Shown here in pieces: positions 23,899 through 60,645 of a DNA stretch of 64,000 nt. The notes under the pieces are model-generated. The model was not told the origin of the DNA. It saw only the letters and a list, made by a program, of their open reading frames with translations, and did no database searches. Each line of letters opens with the position of its first letter. Positions within the stretch are counted from its first letter, which is position 1. The translations under genes were made by a program, and so were the position numbers. This DNA comes from an uncultured Myxococcales bacterium (GTDB lineage: Bacteria; Myxococcota; UBA727; VGSZ01), in the NCBI GenBank assembly GCA_964580865.1, contig CAZONM010000001.1, positions 2,825 through 66,824 on the forward strand. Reading direction: 5' to 3'.

Positions 23899-23905
23899 GA
23901 GGTAC

Positions 23906-34915: not shown

Positions 34916-35255
34916 GTAGGCCTCCCTACGACACGCACCCACATCTTCGAGGTCCACCCCGATGCGTCGACTCTTCCGTCGAACAAGACCGGCTGCGCAA
35001 TCACACCAGCCTCCCAAGGAAATCCAACAACATGGCGCCGGGTCCCCGCCCGGAGCGCTTGGAAGAATGCCTGACAAATGGGACTTTCACCAGTCGATTC
35101 CCCATCGGGAGTGATCCGTACCTCTTCGAGACAGGTCGCCGGCCTCGGGGCCCACCCGACCAGGCCGAAAGGGTCGAAAAACTGGACACCCGAGCCCGTG
35201 CCCGATACCAACGGCGTCACCGGTGTGGGGCCCGTTACCGCCCCCGCACGGCTTG

Positions 35256-38779: not shown

Positions 38780-38833
38780 TCGCCCGCATGACGCCTTCCC
38801 CAGGCCGTGCAAAGGCGCTAGTCCGACGGCGCC

Positions 38834-39892
38834 ATGCGGACCTACCGAGTCATCACCGACCGCCCGTTGCGCTTCGCCCTGGCCGGGTGCGGCCGTATCG
38901 CAGAGAGCCACTTCGAGGCCATCAAGAAGCATGCGGGGCGGTGCGAGCTGGTGGACGTGTGCGATGTCTCGGCCACGGCGTTGGAGGCAGCGGCGACGAA
39001 GACGGGCGCGCGTCCGCACCGCTCGTTCACCGGCATGCTCGCCGCCACCAACGCCGACTGTGTGGTGCTCACCACGCCGAGCGGGTTGCACCCCGCGCAG
39101 GCCATCGAGGCGGCGCGCGCGGGCTTCAACGTCATGACCGAGAAGCCCATGGCGACCCGGTGGCACGACGGCCTCGCCATGGTGAAGGCGTGCGACGACG
39201 CCGGCGTTCGGCTGTTCGTGGTCAAACAGAACCGCCGAAACCAGACGCTGCAGCTGGTCAAGCAGGCCGTCGAGCGGCACCGCTTCGGGCGCATCTACAT
39301 GATCGGCGTCAACGTCTTCTGGACCCGGCCGCAGTCGTACTACGACAGCGCCGCGTGGCGCGGCACGTGGGAGTTCGACGGCGGCGCGTTCATGAACCAA
39401 GCGAGCCACTATGTGGACCTGCTCGATTGGATCGGCGGCCCGGTGGAGAGCGTCATGGCCTACACCGGCACGCTGGCGCGCGACATCCAGGTCGAGGATA
39501 CGGGCGTCGCCGCCCTCAAGTGGCGCAACGGCGCCATGGGGACGCTCAACGTCACGATGCTGACCTACCCGAAGAACCTGGAAGGCTCGATCACCATCCT
39601 CGGCGAGAAAGGATCGGTGCGCGTGGGGGGCGTGGCGGTCAACGAGATCCAGCATTGGCAGTTCGCCGACCCCGACCCCATGGACGCCACCATCAAGGAC
39701 GCCAGCTACCAGACCACGTCGGTGTATGGCTTCGGCCACCCGCTCTACTACGACAACGTCATCAGCACGCTGCGCGGTGAGGCCGCTCCAGAGACCGACG
39801 GCCGCGAGGGCCTGCGCTCGCTGGAGCTCTTGATCGCCATGTACCTCTCGGCGCGCGACGGCAAGCGCGTCAGCCTGCCGCTCTCCTACTAG
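38834..39892 (+). CDS. Gfo/Idh/MocA oxidoreductase, WbpB-like UDP-N-acetyl-2-amino-2-deoxyglucuronate 3-dehydrogenase
   Basis: 352 aa; Rossmann N-terminus [15 protein letters not shown]; followed directly by WbpD- and WbpE-like genes. Confidence 0.75.
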
Positions 39893-39894
39893 CC

Positions 39895-40488
39895 ATGCCC
39901 GTCACCATCCACCCCTCCGCCATCGTCGACGCGGGCGCCGTGCTCGGCGACGGCTGTCGCGTCTGGCACTTCGTCCACATCAGCGGCGGAGCGCGTATCG
40001 GCGCGCGCTGCTCGTTCGGGCAGAACGTCTATGTCGGGAACGACGTGGTCATCGGCGACAACGTCAAGATCCAGAACAACGTCTCGGTCTACGACGCGGT
40101 CACGCTCGAGGACGACGTGTTCTGCGGTCCGAGCATGGTGTTCACCAACGTCATGAACCCGCGCTCGGCCGTGGTGCGCAAGAACGAATACCGGCGCACG
40201 TTGGTGAAGCGCGGCGCCACGCTCGGTGCCAACTGCACCGTCGTGTGCGGCCACACCGTGGGCGCACACGCGTTCGTGGGCGCGGGTGCGGTGGTGTGCC
40301 ACGACGTGCCCGACTTTGCGTTGGTCATGGGCGTGCCGGCGCGCCAGGTCGGGTGGATGAGCCGATTCGGCGAGCGGCTGCGCTTCCCCGCCGGTGGCGG
40401 CGAGGCGGTGTGCCCTGCCACTGGCGATCGGTATCGCCTGGTCGACGGCGCGGTCGCGCTGGTCGAGGAAGCGGGCCCTCGGCCATGA
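39895..40488 (+). CDS. hexapeptide-repeat N-acetyltransferase, WbpD-like (UDP-2-acetamido-3-amino-2,3-dideoxy-glucuronate N-acetyltransferase)
   Basis: 197 aa; left-handed beta-helix repeats ([33 protein letters not shown]). Confidence 0.75.
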
Positions 40489-41649: not shown

Positions 41650-43300
41650 CGGAATCGATCGTACATGTAGAATCATCGTACATCCTCGCCGCGTCGGTCC
41701 TCACAGCCGAGCAGACCCGTGGCCGAGCAAGTTGGTCGACGCGTCCACCCACTCGCCCAGCGTCGAGCACGCGACCCGGAAGCCTCGCGCTTGAAGATGC
41801 CCTCCTGCCGGTGCAGCGGGATGTTGTCGCAGAACTTCACCACCAGCACGAGCGCCAGGAACCCGGGCTCCACCATCGACTTCGAAATCGTGCGCTCCGG
41901 CATGTCGGCGATGAAGACGCGGGTGGCGGCACCAAGCAGCGGCGGCAGCGACGTCGGCGATTGCGCCGGCTGCGACGGCGCCGCGTCCGCCCGCGCAGGT
42001 TCCGGCGCTGTGTACTCCTCGCGCACCAGCTCGATCCTCACCTTCGACGCCGTGATCCGCTCGATGAGCTGCGTCTTCTCTTCGCCGATCTTGACGAGCC
42101 GCTCACCACCGGGCGCGAGCCGCTCTGGGGGGACGAGCACGAACCGACGAGGTGGCAGATCCTCGAGCGCGAGCTTGCGCCGGCCGCGCGGCGACGGCTC
42201 CTTGTTCGTGCTCGCCGACCGCCCCGCCTTCGCACCGGCGATCGCCTTGGCGGCCTGGTCAGCCGCCCGCTGCGCCTCGTCGAGCGCGCCCACGTCGCCG
42301 GCCCGCATGCTGCCGATCGTCGCCAAGAACTCGAACAGCGGCAGTTACGCTTCCTCGTGCCGCACCCGCTCGGCCTTCTGCCCGAACGCCAGGCGCTACA
42401 ACAGCTCGTGCTCCAACAGGAGCTTGTCGTACGCCGTGCATCAGTGCGTCGAGCATCGCCACGGTCTCGAGGTGGCGGGCACGCAGTGTGTTGACGTCGG
42501 CGGGCTCCTCGTTCACGTCGTCATCTATCGACTCCCCGAGGAGGTTGGGGAGGAAATCGGCACGCGCGTACGCTGTTGGCGAGGGCGTTGACCGCGCGCT
42601 CGGTGGCCACGTCCTGCTTTGTTCGCACGGCGACGGCGCCCACCAGGCACCAAGCCGTCCATTGAGCAGGGCATGTCGATGGGTTCGAGCGCAGCCAGGG
42701 TCCGTCGTCCGCTGGGGACCATACGCGCTCCAAGGCTGCGAAAACGCGGATGAGCTCGGCATCGATGAACGCGGGCGGCACTCGCACGACGCGTCCGTTG
42801 GCGAGCGCGACTTGATGCGCTCGCGCTCCAGGTGGCCGGTGACAGCCGCCACTACCTCGACGAAGGTCCCTTCCACTTCAAGAGTGCGGCCGACCCCGAG
42901 CGCGATCTCGGCGACCCGAGGAACCATCGCCACCAGGCGAGCGTCGCCGGCTTCACGCGCCCGCACGCCGCGAACGCGTCCCGCGACGGGCCGCTCCTCG
43001 AACACCGCGCCCCTCGGCGCGCCACACGTCGCTGGACTCCCTCGCCATGCGTCACCTCCGCGCGCGCCACCACGCGGCGCGGCGGCGCGGGTCACTACGT
43101 GGTTGTCGGTTGTAGACGGGCACGCGCACGACTCCGGCGAGGCCAGGCGTGACGACCAGTACTGCCGCTCCCCACGGTGGGCACGGATCGTCAGCTGCGG
43201 GCCGACCGGAGCGGCGAAGATCATGCGACCAGCTCTACCGCCCCGCACGCGATCAGTTCACCCACCCGTTGACATCCCGCTGAGCGCGACAGCCTCCCAG
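41650..43300 (-). mobile_element. degenerate IS66-family insertion sequence remnant (frameshifted and truncated; no intact transposase)
   Basis: Broken ORFs only. The 41673..42326 reading frame is clearly TnpC-like; a direct repeat ATCGTACAT...ATCGTACAT lies at 41658..41683 at its truncated end; the region sits exactly at the GC-content transition. Confidence 0.5.
41673..42326 (-). pseudogene. IS66-family transposase (TnpC) N-terminal fragment, inactivated
   Basis: LPPRRFVLVPPERLAPGGERLVKIGEEKTQLIERITASKVRIELVREEY corresponds to the TnpC zinc-finger region but has lost the CxxC cysteines; PGFLALVLVVKFCDNIPLHRQEGIFKREA matches the conserved PGLLAHVLVSKYADHLPLYRQ block; the DDE catalytic domain is absent because the frame ends at the wbpE-like gene. 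Confidence 0.5.
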
Positions 43301-43401
43301 CGCTTCGCGAAGGCGCCTCCACTGGACATCGACGCCGTCGATGATATCGACGAACCCGGCTGCTGGGATGGCCAGCGATGCCTGGCTGGAGGTCGCCTCC
43401 C

Positions 43402-44571
43402 ATGATCAAGCGTGATGTTGTCCGACAGTACAACCTTCCCCTCGAGGTCAAGTACTGCAAGAAGTGCACGGTAAGCAACCAGAGACCACGCATCACCTTC
43501 GACGGCGACGGCGTCTGCTCAGCATGTCGGTTCGCGGACTTCAAGCGTCAACAAATCGATTGGGCCGAACGCGAACGTGAGCTGGTCGACCTCTGCAACC
43601 GGCATCGGCGCGGCAACGGAGACTATGACGTTATCGTTCCCTGCAGCGGTGGCAAGGATGGTGGGTTTGTCGCTCACCAACTCAAGCATAAATACAACAT
43701 GAATCCGCTGACCGTGACATGGGCCCCACTCCGAGCAACGGAGATTGGACGACAGAACCTCGACGCGTTCATTGCCAGCGGGTTTGACAATGTCTTGGGA
43801 ACGCCGAATGGCCGTCTCACGCGCAAGCTGACGAGGCTCTCGACGCAATACCTAGGTGATCCCTTCCAGCCGTTCATCTATGGCCAAACCAATTTTCCGC
43901 TCCATATGGCCGTGAAGCACCACGTGCCACTCATCATGTACGGCGAGAACGGTGAGGTCGAGTACGGCGGCGATATGAAGAATGCCTTTCGGCCAACCCG
44001 TGACATCCAAGACCACGATAGGCACTATTTCTCGGGCATGCCGCCAGAATTTTGGATTGAGCACGGCATTGGCACCGGAGACCTGAAGCCGTTCATGGCG
44101 CCGCCATACGAAGAGATTGCGGCGAACAAAACAGAGATCCACTTCCTGGGCTATTACAAGTTTTGGGATCCTCAGGAAAACTTCTATTACTGTCGCGAGC
44201 ACACTGGCTTTACCCCGAACCCAGAGCGCTCCGAGGGCACCTATTCCAAGTACGCAAGCCTCGATGATCGCGTTGATGGCTTCCATTACTTCTTGGGCTA
44301 CATCAAGTTCGGGATCGGTCGCACAACCTCCGACGCCGCGCATGAGATTCGCGACGGAAAGATCGACCGCGAAGAAGGTATTGCGTTGGTCAAACGGTAC
44401 GACGGTGAATTTCCGCAAAAGTACTATCCCGAGTTCCTTGAATACATCGGCCTTTCCGACGATGAGTTTCAGGAGGTCGTTGACAGTTGGCGCTCGGACC
44501 ACCTTTGGCATCGTACAGCAACTGGTTGGGAGCTGCGGCATGCGGTCTGGCACGAGGCGCACCGCCAGTGA
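43402..44571 (+). CDS. N-acetyl sugar amidotransferase (WbpG/WbuX/PseA family, PP-loop ATP pyrophosphatase)
   Basis: ORF 43378..44571, start at Met9; N-terminal CxxC...C zinc ribbon (CKKCTVSNQRP...CSAC); PP-loop SGGKDG; lower GC than the flanks. Confidence 0.8.
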   Translation: MIKRDVVRQYNLPLEVKYCKKCTVSNQRPRITFDGDGVCSACRFADFKRQQIDWAERERELVDLCNRHRRGNGDYDVIVPCSGGKDGGFVAHQLKHKYNMNPLTVTWAPLRATEIGRQNLDAFIASGFDNVLGTPNGRLTRKLTRLSTQYLGDPFQPFIYGQTNFPLHMAVKHHVPLIMYGENGEVEYGGDMKNAFRPTRDIQDHDRHYFSGMPPEFWIEHGIGTGDLKPFMAPPYEEIAANKTEIHFLGYYKFWDPQENFYYCREHTGFTPNPERSEGTYSKYASLDDRVDGFHYFLGYIKFGIGRTTSDAAHEIRDGKIDREEGIALVKRYDGEFPQKYYPEFLEYIGLSDDEFQEVVDSWRSDHLWHRTATGWELRHAVWHEAHRQ

Positions 44572-44585
44572 GCGGAGTGCCACTC

Positions 44586-45389
44586 ATGACGTCACGGCAC
44601 GCCCAGATGCTGCATCACGGCGGAGCAGGATCCCATCGGGTCCGCCTAATCCCGCGCCTCGATATCAAGGGACCCAACCTCATCAAGGGCGTCCAGCTCG
44701 AGGGGCTGCGTGTGATAGGGAGCCCGCAGCTGTATGCATCGAGGTACTACGAGGCGGGTGCGGATGAACTCCTCTATGTCGACGTTGTCGCGAGCCTCTA
44801 CGGTCGCAATAGCCTCCACGAGATCATTCGCCGTGCGGCCGAAGATGTCTTTGTGCCGCTGACCGTGGTCGGCGGACTACGAAGCGTCGATGACGTTCGT
44901 GATGCGCTGCGCGCCGGCGCCGACAAGGTTGGCATCAATACCGCTGCCGTGAAGCGGCCCCTGCTCATCGCTGAGGTCGCGAGGGCCTTCGGTTCGCAGT
45001 GCATGGTTCTTTCGATTGAAGCCAAGCGCATCGGACCCGGTCAATGGGAGGCCTATACCGACAACGGTCGTGAGCGAAGCGGCCTGGATGTCGTGGCATG
45101 GGCCCGTCGTGGCGTTGAGCTTGGAGCGGGCGAGATCGTATTGACGTCTGTTGACCGAGAAGGTGGTCGCCAGGGCTACGAGTTGGAGTTGATCTCGGCC
45201 GTTGCTTCTGCGGTAGATGTTCCAGTGATCGCAAGCGGTGGGATGGGCAAACCGATGGACCTCGTTGACGCAGTGGCGGCGGGAGCGAGTGCTGTAGCAA
45301 TGGCCGATATCCTCCATTACGAACGCGCCACACTCTCTCAACTCCGTGAGGCGGCGCGTGGGGCTGGGATTGAAGTAAGGCATCCATGA
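44586..45389 (+). CDS. imidazole-glycerol-phosphate-synthase cyclase-subunit homologue (HisF-like; WbuZ/HisF2) partnered with the sugar amidotransferase
   Basis: ORF 44487..45389, start at Met34; (beta/alpha)8 HisF motifs RLIPRLDIKG, VPLTVVGGLRSVDD, VIASGGMGK. Confidence 0.8.
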   Translation: MTSRHAQMLHHGGAGSHRVRLIPRLDIKGPNLIKGVQLEGLRVIGSPQLYASRYYEAGADELLYVDVVASLYGRNSLHEIIRRAAEDVFVPLTVVGGLRSVDDVRDALRAGADKVGINTAAVKRPLLIAEVARAFGSQCMVLSIEAKRIGPGQWEAYTDNGRERSGLDVVAWARRGVELGAGEIVLTSVDREGGRQGYELELISAVASAVDVPVIASGGMGKPMDLVDAVAAGASAVAMADILHYERATLSQLREAARGAGIEVRHP

Positions 45390-46018
45390 AGGCCGTCACG
45401 GTTGTCGACCATGGCAGTGGCAATCTGCTCAGCGTCGCGCGTTCGCTAGAGCGAGTCGGCGCCACGGTGACGTTCTGTTCTGATACGGCCAGTCTTCTTC
45501 GCGCGGAGCGCCTAGTCCTTCCTGGGGTCGGCGCGTTTGCGACAGGAATGCAGGGGCTATCCTCCAGAGGGCTCGTCGACGCTCTACGGTCGTATTCGGA
45601 AACCGGGCGGCCGATCCTAGGCATTTGCCTCGGCATGCAGTTGCTCGCTGATGTGAGCGAGGAGTTTGGCGCACACGAGGGGCTACGGCTTATTCACGGG
45701 CGTGTTCAAATGATCCCGCGGCGAGACGTGGACGGTAATGCATTGCGGGTTCCGTTTGTCAACTGGGCGGAGCTGCAGCCGTCCCAATCATGGGAGTCAT
45801 CGATTCTCGCCGATGTCCCAACTGGAAAGGCGTTCTATTTTGTGCACTCGTACCACCTCGTAGTCGACAATCCCGCACACGAATTGGCCCACTACGTCTA
45901 CGGTGGGCGGAAGATCGCAGCCGTTGTCCAGGCTGGCGCCGTTACCGGCTGCCAGTTTCATCCGGAGAAGAGCGGGCCGGCCGGGCACGCGCTTCTCGCG
46001 CGCTTTCTCGCCGGTTGA
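45386..46018 (+). CDS. class-I glutamine amidotransferase, HisH-like (WbuY/HisH2)
   Basis: 210 aa; catalytic GICLGMQLL Cys and the HPEKS C-terminal motif; ATGA overlap with the preceding gene. Confidence 0.8.
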   Translation: MKAVTVVDHGSGNLLSVARSLERVGATVTFCSDTASLLRAERLVLPGVGAFATGMQGLSSRGLVDALRSYSETGRPILGICLGMQLLADVSEEFGAHEGLRLIHGRVQMIPRRDVDGNALRVPFVNWAELQPSQSWESSILADVPTGKAFYFVHSYHLVVDNPAHELAHYVYGGRKIAAVVQAGAVTGCQFHPEKSGPAGHALLARFLAG

Positions 46019-46033: not shown

Positions 46034-47509
46034 TTGGCGCGCCTGGGCAGCATCGACGACCTCCTATCGATCGAGGACGATCCGGCGATCCTCGGTTTCC
46101 GTTGCCCGGCTACGGGACTACTCCTTTGGCCACTCGTTCGGGTTGCGTTCCTGCGAGAAATCCTCGGTGAGGTGTTCTACGGCGGCGCGACGGCCCCAGC
46201 GCTTTCGGGATATTCCTTACGCGCGGTCCAGTCCTTGGCGAAGGCAGCTTGGCACGATTTTCGGCATTCGCCGAATGGTGCCGACGTTGTAGTCATGGCC
46301 TCCGGTGCGGGCCGGGTGATGCGGAGCGGCCAGTCGTACAATCGCCTTGCCGATCCATTCGTCGACGTCTTGCCAAAGGGCACGATCCTTATCGAGGATC
46401 TCTTTGGCTGGCAGTGGCCAGTGCTACGCCCAGGGTCAAGAGTGCTATTCCACACGCCGTTTCAGGTCGCCGCGAGCGTCGCCGGGCGGTGTTTGGTTCG
46501 TAGCCGTCACCGGTCGCTCGCCGATCAACTGATCGCATTCGTCGTCGATCGGGCGGGTAAGTCGCTCGGCTGGGCACCTCGTCCGATTCGACAGGCCAGC
46601 GTTGCCAGGATGCTTGCTCACAAGATGGCGGCGCTGCCGGTTCTTCAGCATGGGTACCGACAATTGTTCGAGAGGGTCCGTCCACGGCTTCTCTTGAAGG
46701 AAGAGGCCTGCTATGGCCCGTCGGCAATGCTGATTTCGGTTGCTCGCGAGTTTGGCATAATAACGGCTGAATACCAACACGGCGTTGTAGCGCCTGGTCA
46801 CGATGCGTACAATTTCGCCCCGACGCTTTGCGCATCACCCGCCTGGAGGGCAATCCTGCCAGATTGGTTCCTCAGCTACGGGCAATGGTGGGACGACCAA
46901 ATTAACGCACCGATCAAGCGGCGTGTGATTGGCAATCCGTATCGCAGTCTGTTACTAGAGGGATCCGGAACGGGGTCAATGACGTCTCGCCAGCATCGTG
47001 AGGTATTGGTACTCGGTGACGGCATTGAGACCAACGCCTATGTTGGCCTTGCTCGCGCGCTTGCGCAGGCGCTACCAACATGGCACGTCGTATTTCGGCC
47101 CCATCCACTCGAGCGGCAGCTCGTGTCGGACCGGCACCCGAATGGCATTCCTGTCGACGACGGTCGATTTTTGGAGGTCGATTTGCAGGGGGATCTCTAT
47201 CGTTCCTTCAAGCGGTCGACGGTCGTCATTAGCGAGATGTCAACGGGCCTGTTCGAAGCTATGGGATTGGTACAGGTACCGCTGCTTTGGGACACACCGA
47301 AGTCGCGGTTCACCTTGCCAACTCACAGCTTTGCCTCGTTTCGTACGGTCGATGAGTGCGCGGAGATTCTACGGAACCATGTCGGCGATGATGCTTGCCG
47401 GGACGACGCCGGCGCCATCTGGGCACCGGATTGGCAGTCAAGGTACCGCGCATTTCTCAACGACGTTCTTCAAGGCAATAATGCTCCTCTGGTCGAGAAT
47501 GTTGTGTAG
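46034..47509 (+). CDS. hypothetical protein of the island (491 aa) with a C-terminal GT-B/Rossmann-like domain (putative glycosyl- or glycerophospho-transferase-like)
   Basis: No named family recognised; C-terminal segment VLVLGDGIETNAYVGLARALAQALPTWHVVFRPHPLE...STVVISEMSTGLFEAMGLVQVPLL; paralogous to the C-terminal half of 49835..50737. Confidence 0.55.
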   Translation: MARLGSIDDLLSIEDDPAILGFRCPATGLLLWPLVRVAFLREILGEVFYGGATAPALSGYSLRAVQSLAKAAWHDFRHSPNGADVVVMASGAGRVMRSGQSYNRLADPFVDVLPKGTILIEDLFGWQWPVLRPGSRVLFHTPFQVAASVAGRCLVRSRHRSLADQLIAFVVDRAGKSLGWAPRPIRQASVARMLAHKMAALPVLQHGYRQLFERVRPRLLLKEEACYGPSAMLISVAREFGIITAEYQHGVVAPGHDAYNFAPTLCASPAWRAILPDWFLSYGQWWDDQINAPIKRRVIGNPYRSLLLEGSGTGSMTSRQHREVLVLGDGIETNAYVGLARALAQALPTWHVVFRPHPLERQLVSDRHPNGIPVDDGRFLEVDLQGDLYRSFKRSTVVISEMSTGLFEAMGLVQVPLLWDTPKSRFTLPTHSFASFRTVDECAEILRNHVGDDACRDDAGAIWAPDWQSRYRAFLNDVLQGNNAPLVENVV

Positions 47510-48241
47510 CGGGGCGCTGATGTCTGGTGGCCGATCTTTTTCGCGCGCCCGGTGTGGCCGGCGTCCAAGGGTGCTGGTGGTTCTGAGCGAGCGAATGAGG
47601 TGGCTGCGCACGAAACGGCTGGGCATGAAATGTAGTCGCTCCCGCCGTAGGCGCTGCGCTATCGCCATGCCGAAGTCGCGGCCTGGTGAAACAGGGACGA
47701 AGAGGACGGATGCAAGGGCTACATCTCTCATTCAAGACGACTCGTTCCACACGAAGTCGACGCGTCGTGGGAACGGTATTTCGGACCGATCGTTGAGCCA
47801 GCAGATACAGCAAGCTCACGCCGGCGTCGCCACGCGGCGGATCGTGCCCGGAAAGCGGATCGCTTGCATCGGCCCGTTGTGTCGTCGTGCTGGAGGTTTC
47901 CTGGCCAACGCACTTGCCACGACATCGCCGTCGCTCTGTTGGTTTGACAGTGGGCCGGTAGGGCCTTGCGCGTTATCTGCAAGGGCGAACGGTTGCGTTG
48001 CTGCTTCGCCACCCTCGGTCTTTGCCAGGGTCCCGGCGTCGCGTCGTGGGTTCATGGAGCGAAGCACGGAGCTCGGGTGGCCTTTGATCTCACTGCAACT
48101 TGCGGCGTCCGGCTCACTCAATGCACCTGCTCGCCGCTATTGCAGGTACCAACTCTCCAGCGTTGCGCGCCACGGTCCGCATCGGGACGATATCTGGGTG
48201 GTTCTGTCCGCTTTGCCGGCGATGTCCGCCGCCTGGCGGTC

Positions 48242-49534
48242 ATGATGCTGAAAAGTGGGTTCATATACCTGGCAGCGAATGTCGCCTCGTCGGCTGTACC
48301 GTTCTTCTTGCTGCCCGTCCTGACGAGAGCGTTGGCGCCTGAGGCCTTTGGAGCGATCGTCGGGTTTTCTTTGGTGGCGACCATTGTGGCACCAATCGCT
48401 GGACTAAATGCTCATGGCGCGGTTGGCGTCGCATGGTTCAACCGTGACCGGGAGCATCTCCCCAGTTATGTCGGCGCAGCTGTCCTTGTTGCTTTCACAA
48501 GCACAGCGGTATGGGCGACTATCGCCGCGTTCGTCGTTTCGCAGACACCGATCGTGGACGCCGTGCCTGCCGAATGGGCGGCCGCAGCCGTTGTCATGGC
48601 TGGCGCCCAGGTCGTTCTCCAGATGCGGTTGGTGCTTTGGCAAAGCCAGAAGCGGCCGATGCCGGTCGCGACCATGCAATTCGCAGGTAGCATCGTACAT
48701 ATTGGGCTCGCGCTCGTGGCAGTGCTTGTTCTTGGACTCGAAGCACCGGGCCGAAACGGCGCGGCGGTTGTTGCAGCGGTCTTGTTTGCCGTTCTTGGAG
48801 TAGCTGCGCTGGCATGGGACGGCAATCTGACGTTGCGGGTTCGGCGCGACGACATTTTCGGGGTGGTGCGGTTCGGTGGCTTGCTCGTACCGCACGCGTT
48901 GGGCGGGGCCCTGACAGTCACCGTTGATCGAGTGGTCGTGGCAGCATGCTTGGGGCCTGATGCACTTGGAACCTACGGGGCCGCCGCCCAACTAGGCGCT
49001 GTCGTCGCCATCGCTGCAGATGCTTTCGGCAAGGCGTACAGTCCATGGCTGTTTGAGCGACTCGCGGCTGACGACGAGTCGGAGCGGCTCGTTGCTGTCG
49101 GCGCCATGTATGCTCTTGCCCCCCTTGCCATACCCGCCGGCGGCGTTGCCGCTGTTGCTCTGACAGCTCTCAGTAGCGTCGCTCTGGGCCCTGAATATGG
49201 CGCAGCCGCTGAACTCTTGCCATGGTTCATCGTTGGAGGGGTCGCGACGATCATCTACTTGTTGGTATCGCCGTTGTTTTTCTTTCACGACCGAACCGCT
49301 CGCCTGAGCTCCACAACGCTACCCTGCGCCGCCGTAGGGGCGCTCTGTACCTTCGCGCTAGCAAGAATCGACGGCGCTCGCGGCGCGGCCGCGGGCTTCG
49401 CGTTGACGCAGACGCTCCTGACGACGGGCGTGTGGGTCGTTGCTTTCCACACGTTCGACCTGCCATGGAGAAAACCATATCTTGCATTGCGGACTTGCTG
49501 GCGCCTTCTTCGGAATGTTGACGCCAAACCCTGA
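48242..49534 (+). CDS. wzx: Wzx-type polysaccharide flippase (MOP/PST family)
   Basis: ORF 47966..49534, first ATG at 48242 (MMLKSGFIYLAANVASSAVPFFLLPVLTRAL, the typical PST N-terminus); ~12 TM helices. Confidence 0.7.
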   Translation: MMLKSGFIYLAANVASSAVPFFLLPVLTRALAPEAFGAIVGFSLVATIVAPIAGLNAHGAVGVAWFNRDREHLPSYVGAAVLVAFTSTAVWATIAAFVVSQTPIVDAVPAEWAAAAVVMAGAQVVLQMRLVLWQSQKRPMPVATMQFAGSIVHIGLALVAVLVLGLEAPGRNGAAVVAAVLFAVLGVAALAWDGNLTLRVRRDDIFGVVRFGGLLVPHALGGALTVTVDRVVVAACLGPDALGTYGAAAQLGAVVAIAADAFGKAYSPWLFERLAADDESERLVAVGAMYALAPLAIPAGGVAAVALTALSSVALGPEYGAAAELLPWFIVGGVATIIYLLVSPLFFFHDRTARLSSTTLPCAAVGALCTFALARIDGARGAAAGFALTQTLLTTGVWVVAFHTFDLPWRKPYLALRTCWRLLRNVDAKP

Positions 49535-49834
49535 CTCGGCCGGCCATGGTGCATGCGATCTCGATCCTGGCGCAACGCTGAGCTCGTTTCCACAGGCCCT
49601 CGCGCACGGTGGCAGGTTCCGCGCTCGCCGTCCGGACGCTGTTGGGCGGCTGGATGCCTCAGCCGAGCGGTGCAGCATCAACAACGTCGGTCACGCCGCC
49701 CATCAGGATGTCGGTGGTCGCCGGAGAATCGGCGATACTCACGGGATGACGGCGCGCATTCGCCAGCTCGAGAGCATTGGCTACCTTTCGCGGGACGTTG
49801 GCGCGCGAATGCGCCAAGCGGGAGCGAGCGCTTC

Positions 49835-50737
49835 ATGAGCGAGCGGCGCGCCTCTGAACTGATGGCCAAGCGCGAGCGCGTCGACGCGCGCTCCTCCGTG
49901 CCTAGGAGGCACGCACGTGACGAGGCGGTGTGGCCGATGGTCCTGCACTCGTTCGTCGACGCACCTCGTCTCGCCTTCCCGGGCGCGCCGCCGAGCCGGG
50001 CGGTGCGCGCATGGGCCGTCGCGCGGCGACGGCAGCAGGGAGCCTCCGGACGCCCAAAGCGGTGCGCGCGCGCCGCCCGTATCGGTGCGCCCAGTAGGCT
50101 GCCTCGTTCCGAAGATGTGTCGTTCGCGCGCGTGGGGGCTCGTGCCATCGTCGGCGGCAACCCGTGGCTGTCCTTGTGGTCGTCCGCCGGCGCCGACGCC
50201 GACGTCGAGGACGCGCGCGCCGCAGCCGCCGCGCTGCGCCGCCGCGCCGGCGCGTGCCCCGTGGTGCTGGTGACGCTGCAGCCGGGGATCACCGATGGCG
50301 CCGAGCTCGCGCTGGTGCAGCGGGTGGCACGCGCCACACAGGGCCGGCTCTGGTTCTGGATCCGCTTGCATCCCGCCATGCTCGAGCGCCTCGACGAGGT
50401 GCGCCGGGCCTTCGCCACCCTCGAGCACTGCACCGTCGACGAACCCACCGAGCTGCCGCTGCCCGCGCTGCTCGGTGCCTGCGACGCGCACCTGACCCAC
50501 AGCTCTTCGACGGTCATCGAGGCGGCGCAGTTCGGCGTGCGCTCCGTCGTCACCTCCGTCTACGGCGCCGAGCTCTACCAGCGCCACATCGACGACGAGC
50601 GGCTGACGCTCGCGAGCGGGGGCGCTGACGTCGTCGCCGCGGCGGTGCTGCAGGCGACCAAGCGTGGTCGTGCGGGCACGTCGCACACGGGCAGCATCGA
50701 CGTGGCGCTGGCGCAGGTGCTCGGGGAGGCGCGGTGA
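49835..50737 (+). CDS. hypothetical protein, truncated paralogue of the 46034..47509 protein's C-terminal GT-B-like domain; start uncertain
   Basis: CPVVLVTLQPGITDGAELALVQRVARATQGRLWFWIRLHPAMLE...SSTVIEAAQFGVRSVV aligns to the island protein's VLVLGDGIETNAYVGLARALAQALPTWHVVFRPHPLE...STVVISEMSTGLFEAMGLVQVPLL; the first ~100 codons are Arg-rich and may be non-coding. Confidence 0.35.
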   Translation: MSERRASELMAKRERVDARSSVPRRHARDEAVWPMVLHSFVDAPRLAFPGAPPSRAVRAWAVARRRQQGASGRPKRCARAARIGAPSRLPRSEDVSFARVGARAIVGGNPWLSLWSSAGADADVEDARAAAAALRRRAGACPVVLVTLQPGITDGAELALVQRVARATQGRLWFWIRLHPAMLERLDEVRRAFATLEHCTVDEPTELPLPALLGACDAHLTHSSSTVIEAAQFGVRSVVTSVYGAELYQRHIDDERLTLASGGADVVAAAVLQATKRGRAGTSHTGSIDVALAQVLGEAR

Positions 50738-51891
50738 CGGCCACCATCGTCACCTCGCCCGCCCCGCGCACGGAGCGCCGCACGCTGCGCTTGGGCGTCG
50801 CGTTGGTGCTGCTGTGCGCCATCGCGGTGGGCGGCGCGGTGTTTCTTGCCACCATCGGTATCGACGCGCTCGAGGGCAAGAACGAATTCCAGTTCTTCGC
50901 GGACTCCGGCACCTATCACGCGGTGGCGCGCGGCGACGTCGTCGGCATCGAGGAGCTCAACGAGCTCATCGGCATCGTCGGCAACTTCCTCGGGCCGCTG
51001 ATGATCGTGAAGCTCGCGGGTGGCAACTACTACGCGATCTTGGTCATCAACTGCGTGCTGTTCTTCTGGTCCTTGGTCCTCATCACGCGCGCCCTGAGGA
51101 TCGACGCCCCGCGGCTCATGCTCTTCCTCTTTCTCAACCCGATGACGGTCTCGAGCCTCCTGTCGGTCAACAAGGAGATCCTCTCGATCGTGTTCGTCGC
51201 ACTCCTGGTGAGCGCCCTGGCGCGTCGATCGCTCGTAGCGTTGGCGCTGGCTGCGGCGCTCTCGGTGCTCGTGCGTTGGCAGCTCACCCTCTTCATCGTC
51301 GGTCTCCTGGCGACGATCTCACCGCTCAACCCGCTGCGCGCGCGCCGCGGCTGGACCATCATCGCGATACTGGTGACGTTGTCGGCGCTCTATGCCGCGA
51401 CCCTCGACGTGATCGAGCCGGTGCGCATGACCTTCGAGTCATCGGCGGAGGAGTACGAAGGGTCTGGGTTCTACGCGGCGCTGGTGGGATATCAAGATCG
51501 TGGCCTGTACTGGCTGATCTTCCCGGCCAAGGCGGCGAGCTTGTTGTTCGCGCTCGGGTTGCGCATCGATCGCCTGGTGGCGCCCGACAACATCTACAAT
51601 GACGTTTGGCAGCTGTTGCACTCCACCACCATGCTGGTGACCTTCGTCCTGGTCTGGCGTCGTCGGCGCCTCACCCTGGCAAACGATCTCGTCTTCGTGT
51701 CGGCCGTGTACATCGCGCTCTTCACGCTCTCGCCCATCTACACGCCGCGCTACTTCTACGCGGCGTTCGTGCTGTGGGCCATCGCGCTCGCCGCCGACAG
51801 TGACCGCCCGCCGCTGTTCGCGCCGCGCGCGTCACGGGCGGCCACGCGAGTGTCGGTATCGACGACGCCAGAGGCCCCGGCGCATGCGTGA
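50734..51891 (+). CDS. polytopic membrane protein, candidate O-antigen/EPS polymerase (Wzy-like)
   Basis: 385 aa; 10-11 predicted TM helices, no named family recognised; sits with Wzx/Wzz/OPX genes; GTGA overlap with the preceding ORF. Confidence 0.45.
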   Translation: MTATIVTSPAPRTERRTLRLGVALVLLCAIAVGGAVFLATIGIDALEGKNEFQFFADSGTYHAVARGDVVGIEELNELIGIVGNFLGPLMIVKLAGGNYYAILVINCVLFFWSLVLITRALRIDAPRLMLFLFLNPMTVSSLLSVNKEILSIVFVALLVSALARRSLVALALAAALSVLVRWQLTLFIVGLLATISPLNPLRARRGWTIIAILVTLSALYAATLDVIEPVRMTFESSAEEYEGSGFYAALVGYQDRGLYWLIFPAKAASLLFALGLRIDRLVAPDNIYNDVWQLLHSTTMLVTFVLVWRRRRLTLANDLVFVSAVYIALFTLSPIYTPRYFYAAFVLWAIALAADSDRPPLFAPRASRAATRVSVSTTPEAPAHA

Positions 51892-53524
51892 CCGCGTCGC
51901 CGTCCTCGCGCTGGTGGCGCTCGGCGCGGCGGCCGCGCCCGTGCGCGCGGCGTCGCTGGTGTTCCCCGACGACCCCGCCCTCGCCGTGGGGCGCGCGACG
52001 CTGTTGCTGGCGCAAGATGCGCGCGGCCTCGGCATGTACCCGCTCTCCGATCGCGAGCTGCGCGCGCGCGGCGTGCTCACCGCGCCGCCCGACCCCACGG
52101 GCGCACGGCTGCACCTCGTGTGGCGCCCGCAAGCGAGCGCCTGGCGCGGCCTGTCGCCGGCGCTACGCGAGGGGACGCTGTGGTACGACGCTATCGCGCC
52201 CTTGGCCGAGCTGGGCGCCAACGTGAGCGACGGCGAATGGCTCGGCGCGCACCTGCGCCTCGACCTCAGCTCGGTCCGCCGCGACTTCACGGGCGATGGG
52301 CTGGCCGCACCGTGGACGCTCGACAGCTACGCGAACCTCGACTTCCCGCGCGAGTCGTGGGCGGTGGTCGCCACCGAGCACCTGCTGGTGGCGGCCGGCC
52401 GCTTCCGCAGCGGCATCGGGCACGGCGTGTTCGGCAATCCGTTCTTGAACGGGCGGGCACCCTGGTACGACCAGGTGCAGGCCGAGTGGCACGACGACCA
52501 CTTCCGCGCGCGGTGGCTGCTTGGCACCTCGTCGTCGTTCTTGACCGCCGCCGAGGCCGCGGTGCAGGGCTACGGCACCGCCGCACCGCCGCGCGGTGGC
52601 TTCGACCCCGTCAACAACTATGACAGCGCGCGCTTCGACGCGCCGGCCAAGTCCTTCATGTACCGCTGGTACGAGTGGGCGCCCTGGCCGTGGCTGGTGC
52701 TGGGGGCTGGGGAGATGGGCGTGGTGGGCGGCAAGCAGCCCGACCTCTCGCAGCTGTTGCCGATGGTGGTGTGGCACAACGCCTACGCGCCCGGCAGCAC
52801 CAACGTCATGCTCGGGGTGAGCGCGGCCGTGGCGCCGCTGCCCGGCCTGCTCCTCTTCGGTGAGCTCGTGGCCGACGACGTCGCGACCAGGAACGAGGCG
52901 GATGGGCAGAAGCCCACCTCCTTGGGCTGGCAGCTCGGCGGCCGGTGGGTGGCGTCGGTGCACGCAGACGTGCTCGCCGAGGTCGCCGTCGAGTACACCC
53001 ACGTCGATCGCTGGACCTATCAGCGCTGGCAGCCGTACCTCGTCATGCAGCAGCGACAGATCGTGCCGTGCGGCTGCAACTTCGTCGACGTGCCGCTCGG
53101 CTACCCGTGGGGCGGCGACCTCGACGCCGCGGGCGCGCGCCTACGCGCGTTCGCCCCCGACGGGCTCGAGCTGTCACTGGGGATCGAGGGGATGTGGCGG
53201 GGGGCCATGCGGCTTGGCGCCATCACCGGATCCCCGCTGCTCGACGACCAGGGGGCGCCGGTGCTCGACCGATTCGGCGAACCGGTGCGCGCGCCGCTGT
53301 ACTACGACCTCGACGCGTGGGCGGGTCCGGGCGCGCTCGACGAGTACACGCAGCGGCCGCGCGAAGCTCGGGTCACCATCTCGCTGGGGGCGGACATTCC
53401 GATAGCGCCGCACGTGAGCGCGAACGCCATGGTGCTCTGGAGCGCGCTCGACAACGTCGAGAACGCCGCGGGCGTGCGCGCGCAGCGCTGGCTGCTGCAC
53501 GGCGGCATGCGCGTCGCGCTGTAG
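51884..53524 (+). CDS. secreted/outer-membrane protein (hypothetical, 546 aa), translationally coupled to the Wzy-like gene
   Basis: ORF 51800..53524, ATG at 51884 overlaps the upstream stop; signal peptide MRDRVAVLALVALGAAAAPVRAAS; Trp/Tyr/Gly-rich beta-rich protein. Confidence 0.55.
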   Translation: MRDRVAVLALVALGAAAAPVRAASLVFPDDPALAVGRATLLLAQDARGLGMYPLSDRELRARGVLTAPPDPTGARLHLVWRPQASAWRGLSPALREGTLWYDAIAPLAELGANVSDGEWLGAHLRLDLSSVRRDFTGDGLAAPWTLDSYANLDFPRESWAVVATEHLLVAAGRFRSGIGHGVFGNPFLNGRAPWYDQVQAEWHDDHFRARWLLGTSSSFLTAAEAAVQGYGTAAPPRGGFDPVNNYDSARFDAPAKSFMYRWYEWAPWPWLVLGAGEMGVVGGKQPDLSQLLPMVVWHNAYAPGSTNVMLGVSAAVAPLPGLLLFGELVADDVATRNEADGQKPTSLGWQLGGRWVASVHADVLAEVAVEYTHVDRWTYQRWQPYLVMQQRQIVPCGCNFVDVPLGYPWGGDLDAAGARLRAFAPDGLELSLGIEGMWRGAMRLGAITGSPLLDDQGAPVLDRFGEPVRAPLYYDLDAWAGPGALDEYTQRPREARVTISLGADIPIAPHVSANAMVLWSALDNVENAAGVRAQRWLLHGGMRVAL

Positions 53525-54640: not shown

Positions 54641-55028
54641 CACGCAGCGCGCGCAGGTCGTGGGGTTCGAGCTTGACGATGCCACTGGTTCACCCGCCGG
54701 CCGCACCGTGGGCGGCACCCTCGTGTCGTGTTCGCCATGTCCGCGCGCGACGCCGCTCGACGGTCTCGGCGACGGCGTCGTCGCGGCGCTCGACGCATGG
54801 GCGCGCCATGCTCGGTCGCCACGCGGCGCCCTCGCCGGCACCACCGGCACGCGCTCATCGGCGGACGTGTCGCGCGCCAGCCTACTGCCCCACGCTCGAG
54901 GTTCGTAGCGGGAAGTGTGCGGCGACCCTCCGTTCCGCTCGCCGCCGGTCCGCCGGCAACCGACGTGGCCGCGAGCAGCGGGGTCGAGCGCCTTGACAGC
55001 AGGCGCGGGGTCCGCGACACCGAATGCG

Positions 55029-56114
55029 ATGTCGCGCACCGCGCTGATCACGGGCGTCACGGGCCAGGACGGCGCGTACCTCGCGGAGCTCTTGCTCGAT
55101 AAGGGCTACCAGGTCCACGGCATCAAGCGGCGCAGCTCGCTGTTCAACACCGACCGCATCGATCACCTCTACCACGACCCCCACGTGGCCGGGCGACGCT
55201 TCACGCTGCACCACGGTGACCTCACCGACTCGTCGAGCCTGATCCGTATCATCCAGCAGACCCAGCCCGACGAGATCTACAACCTCGCGGCACAGAGCCA
55301 CGTCGCGGTGAGCTTCGAGGAGCCTGAGTACACGGCGAACTCGGACGCGCTCGGCCCGCTGCGCGTGCTCGAAGCGATCCGCATCCTGGGCCTCGAGAAG
55401 AGGACGCGCTTCTACCAGGCGTCGTCCTCGGAGATGTATGGGCTCGTGCAGGCGGTGCCGCAGAACGAGCACACGCCCTTCTACCCGCGCAGCCCCTACG
55501 CCGTCGCCAAGCTGTACGCTTATTGGATCACGGTCAACTACCGCGAGGCCTACGGCATCTACGCCTGCAACGGCATCCTGTTCAACCACGAGTCGCCGCT
55601 GCGCGGCGAGACGTTCGTAACGCGCAAGATCACGCGCGCGCTGGCCCGCATCAAGCTGGGCATCCAAGACTGCCTGTGGCTCGGGAACCTGAACGCGCGC
55701 CGCGACTGGGGCCACGCGCGCGACTACGTCGTGATGCAGTGGCTCATGCTGCAACAAGACGCGCCCGACGACTACGTCGTCGCTACGGGTGTGCAGCGCT
55801 CGGTGCGCGAGTTCGTCGAGGCGGCGGCGCGCGAGTTGGATATCGAGCTTCGCTGGCAAGGCACGGGCGTCGACGAGAAGGGCTATGACCGCAGCGGCCG
55901 CTGCATCGTCGCGGTCGATCCACGCTACTTCCGCCCCACCGAGGTCGACACGCTGCTCGGCGACGCGTCCAAGGCGCGTGCCAAGCTCGGCTGGGCGCCC
56001 ACCGTCTCCTTCGAGCAGCTGGTCGCGGAGATGGCCAAGGAAGACCTCATCGCCGCGGAGCGCGATGAGCTGATCAAGCGCCACGGCTATCGCGCGCTGC
56101 TGCGGCATGAGTAG
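55029..56114 (+). CDS. gmd: GDP-mannose 4,6-dehydratase
   Basis: [37 protein letters not shown]...; SDR YxxxK ([10 protein letters not shown]); 361 aa. Confidence 0.93.
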
Positions 56115-56120
56115 CCGCCC

Positions 56121-57071
56121 ATGAGCGACCGCGTCCTCGGCCCCGACAGCAAGATCTACGTCGCCGGTCACCTCGGCATGGTGGGTTCCGCGCTGCTGCG
56201 CCGGCTGCGGGCCGGCGGGTATCGCAACCTTGTGGTCCGGTCGCGCGCCGAGCTCGACCTGTGCGACCAGGCCGCCACCCACCGCTTCCTCGCGGACCAG
56301 CGCCCCGACGTCGTCATCGTGGCGGCGGCGCGCGTCGGCGGTATCCACGCGAACGACACCCTCCGCGCGCAGTTCCTGTACGACAACCTAGCCATCGCCA
56401 CCAACGTCATCGACGGCGCCCACCGCGCTGGGGTCGACCGGCTCCTGTTCCTCGGCTCGAGCTGCATCTACCCGCGCGACTGCTCGCAGCCGATCCGCGA
56501 GGAGTATCTGCTCACGGGCCCGCTCGAGCACACCAACGAGCCCTACGCCATCGCCAAGATCGCCGGGCTCAAGCTGTGCGAGGCGTACGCCGCGCAATAC
56601 GGTCGCCGCTACATCTCGGTGATGCCGACGAACCTGTATGGCCCCAACGACAACTACGACCTGGCGTCGAGCCACGTGCTGCCGGCGCTCTTGCGCAAGG
56701 CCCACGAGGCGAAGGCCGCGGGTGCCCGTCAGCTCGCCGTCTGGGGCAGCGGGGCGCCGCGCCGCGAGTTCCTGTTCGTCGACGACCTCGCGGACGCCTG
56801 CGTGTTCTTGCTCGAGGCCGGCTACGGTGGGTCGTGGGTCAACGTCGGCACGGGCAGCGACGTGACCATCGCGGAGCTGGCGCAGCTCGTCATGCGCACC
56901 GTGGGGTTCGCCGGCGAGCTCGTGTTCGATCGCACCAAGCCCGACGGCACGCCGCGCAAGCTCCTCGACGTCTCGCGCCTGCAGGCGCTCGGGTGGCGCG
57001 CCCGCACGTCGCTCCACGACGGTCTGGCGCGCACCTACCAGGACTTTTTGAACGCGCCTCCCACGGGATGA
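56121..57071 (+). CDS. fcl: GDP-L-fucose synthase (GDP-4-keto-6-deoxy-D-mannose 3,5-epimerase/4-reductase)
   Basis: 316 aa; [15 protein letters not shown] and [15 protein letters not shown] motifs; directly downstream of gmd. Confidence 0.9.
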
Positions 57072-57862: not shown

Positions 57863-58639
57863 TCAGCGCGCGCTCGCGCTCGCGCACAGCTCGTCGCGCT
57901 GCGCCTGGCTCGGGTAGTTGATGAGCACGGCGCGGAACGGCCCCTTGAACACGAACAGGCTGCCGGCCGCGGCCCCCACCACACCGCACGTGGTGACGAG
58001 CGCGCGCAGATCGGCGAGCGACCCGGCGCCGCCGAGCACCGTGAGCGGGATGCGCACGGCCTCCCGCACCGCGCGCGCCAGCGTCAGGTCGTAGCCCTTC
58101 ATCAGACCGTCGTTGTCGATGGAGTTCACCACCAGCTCGCCAGCGCCGAGCGCTGCCATCTCCGCGGCCACGTCGACGGGCGCGCGCTTGGTGTTGCGGG
58201 TGCCGTTGTGCGTCCACACCTCGGCACCGCCCAGCAAGCGCTTCTTGACGTCGAGCACCACCACCACGCTCTGGCTGCCGATCTCCTCGGCGATCTGACG
58301 CACCAGCGCGGGCCGCTCGATGGCCGCGGAGCTGAGCGCCACCTTCTCGACGCCGAGCCCCACGATCTGGCGGGCGTGCGCCGCGGTCTTGACGCCGCCG
58401 CCGTAGCACAGCGGCATGCGGCACTCCATCGCCAGCGAGGTGATGAGCTTGAGGTTCGGCTCGGCCGCGCGCACGCTCGCGTCGATGTCGAGCACGATCA
58501 GCTCGTCGGCCTCCTTCTCGTTGAAGATCTTCACCGCGTTGATGGGATCGCCGACGTACTTCGGCTCCTTGAAGCGCTGGGTCTTCACCAGACCGCCGTC
58601 GTGGACCAGCAAGCACGGGATGACGCGAGGACGGAGCAT
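57863..58639 (-). CDS. HisF-like cyclase subunit (HisF2/WbuZ), second copy
   Basis: MLRPRVIPCLLVHDGGLVKTQRF...; ORF 57863..59710 with start at Met358 (58639); the upstream part of that ORF is an alternative frame of the hisH-like gene. Confidence 0.8.
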   Translation of the reverse strand: MLRPRVIPCLLVHDGGLVKTQRFKEPKYVGDPINAVKIFNEKEADELIVLDIDASVRAAEPNLKLITSLAMECRMPLCYGGGVKTAAHARQIVGLGVEKVALSSAAIERPALVRQIAEEIGSQSVVVVLDVKKRLLGGAEVWTHNGTRNTKRAPVDVAAEMAALGAGELVVNSIDNDGLMKGYDLTLARAVREAVRIPLTVLGGAGSLADLRALVTTCGVVGAAAGSLFVFKGPFRAVLINYPSQAQRDELCASASAR

Positions 58640-58644
58640 GCGCC

Positions 58645-59262
58645 TCAAAGCTCCGCGAAATTCTTGAGGAGCGCCGCACCGTAGTGGTGGCTCTTCTCGG
58701 GGTGAAACTGCACGCCGTAGACGTTGTCGGCGTGGACGGCGCAGGTGAACTCCCCACCGTAGGTGGCTGTGGCCGCCGTGTCGTCGGCGCGTTCGGCTTC
58801 GAAGAAGAATGAGTGCAAAAAGTAGAAACGCGCGTCGCGCTCGAGCCCGGCGAACAACCGCTCGCCGGCGCGCGGCGTGACGTCGTTCCAGCCCATGTGG
58901 GGCATGGGCAGCCGCGCCGCCGGCGGCCAGTCGCGAAAGCCGCGTACCCGCCCGGGGATCAGCTCCAGCCCCGCGCGCGTCCCCTCGTCGCTCGAGCGCG
59001 CCAACAGCTGCATGCCCACGCACACGCCGAGCAGCGGCACCTTGCGTGTGTGCACCAGCTCCACCAGCGTCGGCTTCATGCCCGAGGCCTCGAGGCGCTC
59101 GACGGCGTGGTCGAAGGCGCCGACGCCCGGCAGGATGACCTTGGTGGCGCCCGCGAGCTCGTCGGCGCTCCTCGCCACGGTGCACGGGAGGTTGAGTCGC
59201 CGATAGACGTTGGCGAACGCCAAGACATTGCCGAGCCCGTAGTCGATGATCGCGACCGTCAT
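58645..59262 (-). CDS. HisH-like glutamine amidotransferase (HisH2/WbuY), second copy
   Basis: MTVAIIDYGLGNVLAF...GVCVGMQLL...FHPEKS; 205 aa. Confidence 0.85.
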   Translation of the reverse strand: MTVAIIDYGLGNVLAFANVYRRLNLPCTVARSADELAGATKVILPGVGAFDHAVERLEASGMKPTLVELVHTRKVPLLGVCVGMQLLARSSDEGTRAGLELIPGRVRGFRDWPPAARLPMPHMGWNDVTPRAGERLFAGLERDARFYFLHSFFFEAERADDTAATATYGGEFTCAVHADNVYGVQFHPEKSHHYGAALLKNFAEL

Positions 59263-60557: not shown

Positions 60558-60645
60558 CCGTCCTCGCCCGTCGCGGCCGTCGCGCCAAGTCGGGCACGCA
60601 CGGATGCCGCGCCGACGCGCATTGTGCAAGGCGTGACGGCGTGGC

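Follow-up and report, generated by a model that had tools for sequence, protein, structure and literature searches.

Transferases for the sialic-acid-like sugars of bacteria are poorly known (PMC5420450). Knock-out of Tanf_01245 or TFUB4_00887, described as TagB-like proteins of the glycosyltransferase B (GT-B) fold with an HP (His-Pro) motif, leads to loss of the pseudaminic or legionaminic acid (Pse/Leg) derivative from the S-layer glycan of Tannerella forsythia, and BFO_1060 is listed with these two proteins (PMC5420450). The retaining ulosonic-acid transferases KpsC/KpsS (family GT107), KpsS1 (GT118, a Pse transferase), WbbB (GT99) and KrkA (GT140) form a second group, whose likeness to the protein treated here lies in eight- or nine-carbon keto-acid donors (for that protein, proposed ones) activated by cytidine monophosphate (CMP), an HP-type motif and a place in capsule or O-antigen loci (PMC12887879, PMC10148158). 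In bacterial sialyltransferases the role of the HP motif has been published and serves here as the model for the proposed donor contacts (PMC2169525). Here, we describe a 491-residue GT-B protein encoded in a low-GC (guanine plus cytosine) island of a 64,000-nucleotide stretch from an uncultured Myxococcales bacterium (assembly GCA_964580865.1, contig CAZONM010000001.1, positions 2,825 to 66,824 of the forward strand; the window), together with a damaged native relative just downstream, and propose it as a candidate transferase of a CMP-activated nonulosonic acid. Positions are those of the whole 64-kilobase (kb) window, and residue numbers those of the 491-residue protein unless stated.

The 491-residue protein and its family

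The family of the island protein is termed A1 (35 sequences), and A2 denotes the full-length relatives, about 500-520 residues long, of the native open reading frame (ORF) downstream (37 sequences). A1 and A2 are sister families with about 19% identity to each other, and their merged alignment (A4) holds 38 sequences. The island gene and its motifs are as follows.

46034..47509, + strand: island copy, intact GT-B protein of family A1, 491 residues, TTG start
46127..46141, + strand: WPLVR (W32, R36), invariant in A1 and A2 by the family alignment
46775..46783, + strand: QHG (Q248-H249-G250), behind a strand of the N-terminal Rossmann domain, invariant in A1 and A2
47096..47107, + strand: R355-P-H357-P358 (HP motif), following strand two of the C-terminal Rossmann domain
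47240..47257, + strand: S403-T-G-L-F-E408

An earlier note on this DNA had called the island protein and the native ORF orphans, a label that database searches overturn. An indexed search returned more than 350 clusters (90% identity) of full-length relatives of the 491-residue protein, at 37-62% identity, and 89 clusters (again at 90%) for the native ORF, and an exhaustive search of 50%-identity representatives with the A2 hidden Markov model (HMM) found 7194 at an expectation value (E) <=1e-3, 4421 at <=1e-10 and 2419 at <=1e-30. All named members of A1 and A2 are entered as 'hypothetical protein' and none has a Pfam domain on record; a third indexed search, with the merged profile, yielded no further distant, annotated relatives. 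One member of 957 residues (P0261) is built from a pair of A2 modules in tandem (HMM positions 2-493 and 4-473), and a Pfam scan for a fusion partner found none in it. Such a tandem two-module architecture is known from polymerising transferases, e.g. KpsC, and is typical of transferases and polymerases.

The sugar-transferase-like fold that the earlier note expected is borne out by structure prediction. The AlphaFold2 (AF2) model of the 491-residue protein (predicted local distance difference test, pLDDT, 90.6; predicted template modelling score 0.91) has two Rossmann-like alpha/beta domains, the C-terminal one being the predicted donor-binding domain, and in addition an extra segment at the N-terminus and a lengthy helical stretch inserted at residues ~141-215. 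In structural comparison the model scored 16.6 with TarL, a TagF-like ribitol-phosphate polymerase, 15.6 with both WlaC and NeuC, 15.1 with MurG, about 15 with UDP-GlcNAc (uridine diphosphate N-acetylglucosamine) 2-epimerases, 13.9 with TagF, 13.7 with Bcs3, 13.3 with the polysialyltransferase SiaD and 12.6 with WaaA, and Foldseek gave generic GT-B matches only (template modelling scores 0.40-0.45). On the predicted model, membership is thus settled for the GT-B fold rather than for a sub-class of it. Thirteen residues (W32, R36, Y227, Q248, H249, G250, Y259, P276, R355, H357, P358, S403 and A409) are invariant in the 38 sequences of A1 and A2, and E408 is conserved in at least 90%; by this alignment, the A1/A2 superfamily has its invariant signature in the R-x-H-P core.

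Neither of the two window ORFs, and none of the 35 A1 and 37 A2 members, passed any Pfam or NCBIfam threshold, and the 491-residue protein and the A1 and A2 profiles had no match among all PDB sequences even at E<=10 (phmmer, hmmsearch). The earlier note had been reminded of KpsC/KpsS (Capsule_synth) and TagF (Glyphos_transf), and membership of either family finds no backing in the searches: the 491-residue protein has no hit, and its relatives have rare sub-threshold ones. For Capsule_synth (PF05159), the island protein and the 394-residue ORF that holds the native copy gave no hit at E<=0.1, nor did any of the 35 A1 members, and three of the 37 A2 members gave one (best E 0.0087); for Glyphos_transf (PF04464), the window ORFs gave none, with 4/35 hits in A1 (best E 0.11) and 1/37 in A2 (E 0.32).

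Gene neighbourhoods and the transferred sugar

Thirty genome loci were found with the A1 profile and nine more were fetched by exact protein look-up, and all were scored by tblastn with marker proteins; 38 loci had enough flank at a range of 10 kb, and Pfam-annotated gene tables were drawn up for nine. NeuB, a CMP-sugar synthetase or both lie within 10 kb in about 35 of the 38, usually in a complete legionaminic-type set (4,6-dehydratase, DegT aminotransferase, PglD-like acetyltransferase, Epimerase_2, NeuB, NTP_transferase and CTP_transf_3), and the A1 gene stands directly 3' of NeuB in loci L017 and L033. The A1/A2 gene adjoins Wzx almost always, and a HisH-HisF-PP-loop trio (PP-loop protein of 365-375 residues) in about 31 loci; the order of this trio appears to resemble the hisH-hisF-wbpG order of the Pseudomonas aeruginosa O5 cluster. 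Other transferases in the Pfam-annotated loci are of GT4, GT2 or Bac_transf types, and no recognised CMP-sugar transferase family was called there. This context points to a CMP-activated nonulosonic acid of the legionaminic/pseudaminic type rather than to Kdo (3-deoxy-D-manno-oct-2-ulosonic acid), glycerol phosphate or pyruvate. Three loci from Methylophilus and a betaproteobacterial metagenome-assembled genome (MAG) (L008, L009 and L011) carry two NeuB genes and two amidotransferase trios, with A1 directly after the second NeuB, and one contig (L011 and L017) carries two A1 genes ~19 kb apart.

The GC content of the window is ~72% and falls to ~60% between 43.3 and 49.6 kb, where third-position GC is 0.64-0.68; most flanking genes exceed 0.9, and the two genes directly downstream stand at 0.82-0.87. 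This composition supports the earlier proposal, in that the 491-residue gene lies in a segment of foreign composition. The segment holds five genes on the + strand, namely the one described above and the four listed here together with the insertion-sequence remnant upstream of them.

41673..42344, - strand: truncated IS66-family transposase fragment (PF03050, only profile positions 1-48 of 284)
43378..44571, + strand: WbuX-type N-acetyl-sugar amidotransferase, PP-loop (TIGR03573, E 1e-102)
44487..45389, + strand: WbuZ/HisF-like cyclase subunit (PF00977, 5e-61; TIGR03572, 1e-78), true start probably near 44586
45386..46018, + strand: HisH-like glutaminase subunit (PF00117; TIGR01855, 1.6e-52)
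48242..49534, + strand: Wzx-type flippase, 430 residues (PF01943; gene call from the identical metagenome contig L001)

The closest relative of the 491-residue protein (P0002, 62% identity) is encoded in a locus of the order WbpB-WbpD-WbpE-dehydratase-Epimerase_2-NeuB-NTP_transferase-CTP_transf_3-WbuX(389)-HisF-HisH-A1-Wzx. The window has this order minus the five nonulosonic-acid biosynthesis genes, in whose place the IS66 fragment stands, with the intact native wbpE on one side and the island on the other. Because the order matches apart from these five genes, we take the island to be the distal part of a P0002-type locus. The island WbuX-type amidotransferase has 77% identity to a Chitinimonas copy, which adjoins NeuB and a CMP-synthetase. 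At 730 bp, the gap between the 491-residue gene and wzx (47510-48241) is unusually long, the closest related locus having ~95 bp, and it holds only one 101-residue ORF on the minus strand, of no family; a 329-residue ORF of no family (42259-43248, minus strand) likewise lies between wbpE and the low-GC island.

With somewhat better than even confidence, we propose the island protein as a candidate CMP-nonulosonic-acid transferase, the donor presumably being the sugar to which the neighbourhoods point. On the cytoplasmic side of the membrane, and ahead of flipping by the adjacent Wzx, the enzyme would attach a CMP-activated nonulosonic acid to the repeat unit linked to undecaprenyl diphosphate. 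The proposed donor is a sugar of legionaminic/pseudaminic type that probably receives an N-acetimidoyl group from the neighbouring WbuX/HisF/HisH trio. The C-terminal Rossmann domain would bind the cytidine nucleotide via R355/H357/P358, S403/T404 and E408: the R355-P-H357-P358 motif is predicted to contact the nucleotide phosphate, and S403-E408 to bind phosphate and ribose within the donor site. Contacts with the phosphate would come from the histidine of the HP motif and from the Ser/Thr, and the contact with ribose from the Glu. The N-terminal domain (W32/R36, Y227, Q248-H249-G250, H256 and Y259) would supply the acceptor site and the catalytic residue, with H249 of QHG as the likeliest candidate for a catalytic or acceptor-side residue. 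The 43.3-49.6 kb segment as a whole would be a fragment of a foreign O-antigen or capsule locus (trio, transferase and flippase) abutting the IS66 remnant.

For the superfamily at large we propose, more tentatively and at a little under even confidence, that A1 and A2 form an unrecognised glycosyltransferase family inserting acetamidino Leg/Pse-type sugars into Wzx/Wzy-dependent O-antigens and capsules, the tandem members being polymerases. If true, this would account for missing nonulosonic-acid transferases across Proteobacteria, Bacteroidota, Gemmatimonadota and others, in thousands of 50%-identity clusters. A very large family without a curated model that consistently sits by the legionaminic-acid pathway offers a testable candidate for the absent transfer step, with relevance to many environmental and some host-associated bacteria. 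This uncurated GT-B family is a strong candidate for nonulosonic-acid transfer, and mechanistically it would fall within expectations.

Compared with described systems, the BFO_1060 family has in common with A1/A2 a two-domain GT-B/TagB-like build of 440-500 residues, the HP motif and adjoining CMP-nonulosonic-acid pathway genes, the last being found for the A1/A2 family in the proportion of loci given above and not for the window. Its model NF046086 (BFO_1060 family glycosyltransferase) has sub-threshold matches in 20 of the 37 A2 members (best E 8.7e-8) and no hit among A1 members or the two window ORFs. The N-terminal domains of the BFO_1060 family and of A1/A2 are unrelated in sequence, and the Tannerella enzymes serve protein O-glycosylation, whereas A1/A2 genes lie in Wzx-type polysaccharide loci. 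Sub-threshold matches also occur to TIGR04396 'surface carbohydrate biosynthesis protein' (19/35 A1 and 6/37 A2; best E 3.2e-5) and DUF6716 (21/37 A2; best E 9.1e-5); these too are uncharacterised GT-B-like families, DUF6716 being a putative glycosyltransferase, and with no tested function there the comparison adds little. With the GT38, GT52 and GT80 sialyltransferases the superfamily has in common the HP motif, H357-P358 being invariant in the 38 sequences; solved sialyltransferases had no sequence match to A1/A2. The family stands near the TagF-like and ulosonic-acid transferases and, by profile match, belongs to none of these groups.

Several observations weigh against a CMP-nonulosonic-acid transferase. 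The A1/A2 superfamily is without any biochemically characterised member, and wherever a named family is matched the score falls far short of its threshold; for NF046086 it is 18-32 bits, where 200 are required, over the C-terminal generic donor-binding domain only. The D/E-D/E-G motif, which in bacterial sialyltransferases supplies the catalytic base from the N-terminal domain, is not conserved in A1, A2 or A4, where the nearest strings are KEEACYG (A1) and YYxxEG (A2). Neither a NeuB-like synthase nor a CMP-sugar synthetase was found in the 64-kb window; the nonulosonic-acid pathway may be encoded in a part of the genome outside the window, or else the locus may be in decay. Two other loci, L016 (Brucella sp.) and L040 (Syntrophomonas), are likewise without NeuB or CMP-synthetase within 10 kb. 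The gene is, moreover, linked to the WbpG-like HisH/HisF/PP-loop trio about as tightly as to nonulosonic-acid genes, so the true partner could be another amidated sugar. Of the exceptions to the link with nonulosonic-acid genes, the locus of the Syntrophomonas MAG (L040, 9048-14001) is the clearest: there a radical SAM/SPASM protein is followed by A2, PP-loop, HisH and HisF, which hints at the amidotransferase trio as the tighter partner.

Were the partner another sugar, the enzyme would be a transferase with a uridine diphosphate (UDP) donor for, e.g., 2,3-diacetamido-2,3-dideoxy-uronic acid or its acetamidino or amide form, a product of WbpB/D/E and the WbpG-like trio. Such a role would suit the conserved cassette of the A gene, HisH, HisF and PP-loop protein in about 31 loci, the WbpB-WbpD-WbpE-Wzx-A order seen in L005, L010, L014, L016 and L021 as well as in the native flank of the window, and the three cases (L016, L040 and the window) in which the trio is present with NeuB and CMP-synthetase not within reach. 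We nevertheless regard it as unlikely: WbpB/D/E are present in only about 11 of the 38 loci, four loci (L012, L023, L028 and L034) have nonulosonic-acid genes without a second trio, and the one named family to which A2 members show a recurrent likeness is a family of nonulosonic-acid transferases.

A TagF/TarL-like phosphotransferase would instead take glycerol phosphate, ribitol phosphate or the phosphate of some other alditol or sugar from a cytidine diphosphate (CDP) donor and leave a phosphodiester substituent on the repeat unit. The predicted model does show structural similarity to TagF/TarL, and at the same time A1 has no significant sequence match to them and differs from them by its extra N-terminal segment and the helical insertion. 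Genes for CDP-glycerol or CDP-ribitol supply are absent from the nine Pfam-annotated loci, where the cytidylyltransferase is CTP_transf_3, and we consider a phosphotransferase distinctly unlikely. It is very unlikely that the protein is a GT-B enzyme that modifies nucleotide sugars rather than a transferase, e.g. a divergent 2-epimerase (WbpI/NeuC-like). Epimerase_2 matches 13 of the 37 A2 members below threshold (best E 3.6e-4), no A1 member and neither window ORF, and a canonical Epimerase_2 is already next to NeuB in eight of the nine Pfam-annotated loci, L040 being the exception. Further, 2-epimerases depend on a conserved Asp/Glu, and no acidic residue of the N-terminal domain is invariant across A1 and A2, E14 alone being near-invariant; the existence of the tandem two-module form also counts against an epimerase.

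The native copy: homology and internal deletion

The second protein of interest lies downstream of the island, where a mechanical ORF of 394 residues (49553-50737, + strand) contains a coding part of 300 residues that starts at an ATG, as called on the identical metagenome contig. The first ~94 codons of the ORF are Arg-rich and without homolog, and homology is confined to 49835-50737.

49835..50737, + strand: native A2-family remnant, 300 residues
50135..50140, + strand: approximate deletion junction (…VSFARVG / ARAIVGGNPW…)
50363..50374, + strand: RLHP motif of the remnant
50498..50524, + strand: HSSSTVIEA motif of the remnant

The earlier note had aligned the two window ORFs over a shared R-x-HP block, taking a pairwise E above 0.01 as speaking against a relationship. 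By that yardstick direct alignment fails: BLASTP gives the block E=6.4, and the best high-scoring segment pair of any kind has E=1.9. For the native ORF, the A1 HMM, built with the query left out, gives a score of 0.4 bits, which in one comparison corresponds to E=0.0085. At the level of families the picture differs, hhalign joining A1 and A2 with a probability of 99.3% (E 2.8e-20) over 420 columns and pairing RPHPLER with RLHPxML and SEVSTGLFEA with HSSSTVIEAA, which are the columns that the earlier note had paired; the A2 HMM finds the 491-residue protein at E 2e-19. Profile-profile comparison by domain gives E 1.9e-18 for the N-terminal halves, and E 8e-4 with a probability of 25% for the C-terminal halves alone. 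The profile evidence for homology is thus mostly from the N-terminal region, which is gone from the native ORF, and the pairing, judged by the same alignments, is of truly homologous positions in a block that has no statistical weight alone. Both ORFs are shown by these profiles to be distant relatives in one large uncurated superfamily of ~500-residue GT-B enzymes. That they look alike by chance, through a generic Rossmann pattern in DNA rich in GC, is hardly credible: although the direct alignment of the block, the A1 HMM score on the native ORF and the C-domain-only probability would all suit chance, the native ORF is an unambiguous A2 member at 219 bits, and A1 and A2 are homologous with colinear motifs.

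The native copy was also said to be N-terminally degraded; it is indeed damaged, and the damage is an internal in-frame deletion that keeps the first ~100 residues. Residues ~103-300 of the 300-residue product match A2 profile positions 302-500 with the score just given and 42-56% identity, and the A2 HMM also matches the ORF weakly at positions 2-36. In low-stringency tblastn, the first 101 native residues align colinearly with A2 residues 1-106, and the alignment then jumps to A2 ~301 (AIVGGNPW); strings common to the native N-terminus and A2 are MSE-R-S-LM, VWP(L/M)V, and SEDVSFARVG versus SDGVSFAQLG. A2 positions ~107-300, including the ERFCDP, SYY and QHG motifs, are gone, and the invariant Arg of WPLxR is also replaced (WPMVLH). 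No frameshifted remnants of the absent segment were found in the other frames of 49400-50740. Alignment to full-length A2 relatives fits a single in-frame internal deletion of ~195 residues. The AF2 model of the 300-residue product has a confident fold only over residues ~103-300, with pLDDT<50 at residues 23-95.

Two other accounts of the short form were rejected. A recurrent short subfamily is not seen, other short matches being contig fragments or N-terminally shortened proteins that keep QHG, and the 300-residue form is therefore peculiar to this lineage. Nor was the native 5' end cut off by the island insertion, the N-terminal ~100 residues of the family and a plausible ATG having been kept.

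As a lone donor-binding half, the native product should be inactive as a transferase. Against this, and against the reading of which it forms part, stands the fact that the reading frame of the remnant has stayed open and its C-terminal half is well conserved, and the remnant may have some residual role. That the island copy functionally replaced the native one is plausible and is put no higher, because the island is without the biosynthesis genes of the sugar.

The polysaccharide locus and other genes of the window

The polysaccharide locus of the window is a mosaic, with intact native genes on one side, a disabled native paralog on the other, and a foreign trio-transferase-flippase segment plus an IS66 remnant in the middle, an arrangement that could result from serotype-locus turnover. 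The remaining genes of the locus are as follows.

33416-35086, - strand: native WecA-like initiating transferase
35115-37673: native Wza
37355-38779: native Wzz
38822-39892: native WbpB-like protein
39781-40488: native WbpD-like protein
40503-~41603: native WbpE/DegT, intact
50734..51891, + strand: native membrane protein, Wzy/EpsG-like, directly 3' of the remnant (weak: PF14897 at E 0.083 only)
53540-~54658, - strand: native WbpG-like PP-loop gene
54909-57071, + strand: guanosine diphosphate (GDP)-mannose 4,6-dehydratase (Gmd) and reductase
57908-59256, - strand: native HisF and HisH
59259-60677, - strand: native GT4 transferase

Promoter and terminator scans around the island and native A-family genes gave nothing above background, comparison of the two island flanks (41.5-43.4 kb and 49.5-50.2 kb) for direct repeats or common sequence returned chance matches only, and tblastn of the 491-residue protein against PLSDB plasmids gave no match. 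Homologs of the Wzy/EpsG-like protein follow A1 genes in six loci (L015, L018, L020, L024, L025 and L029). For the 574-residue protein downstream of it (51800-53524), neither Pfam nor NCBIfam gave a match; a gene on the minus strand at 32262-33047, just outside the polysaccharide locus, encodes a distant paralog with 28% identity over 289 residues. The respiratory nitrate reductase cluster (NarG, NarH and NarI-like; 18010-25343) also has an overall GC content of only ~65%, and this dip is not a foreign island, because third-position GC there is 0.94-0.97, unlike that of the 43-50 kb segment. The second, native amidotransferase trio is split, with Gmd and the reductase between the WbpG-like gene and HisF/HisH; in most related loci a WbpG-like/HisF/HisH trio directly follows the A1/A2 gene.

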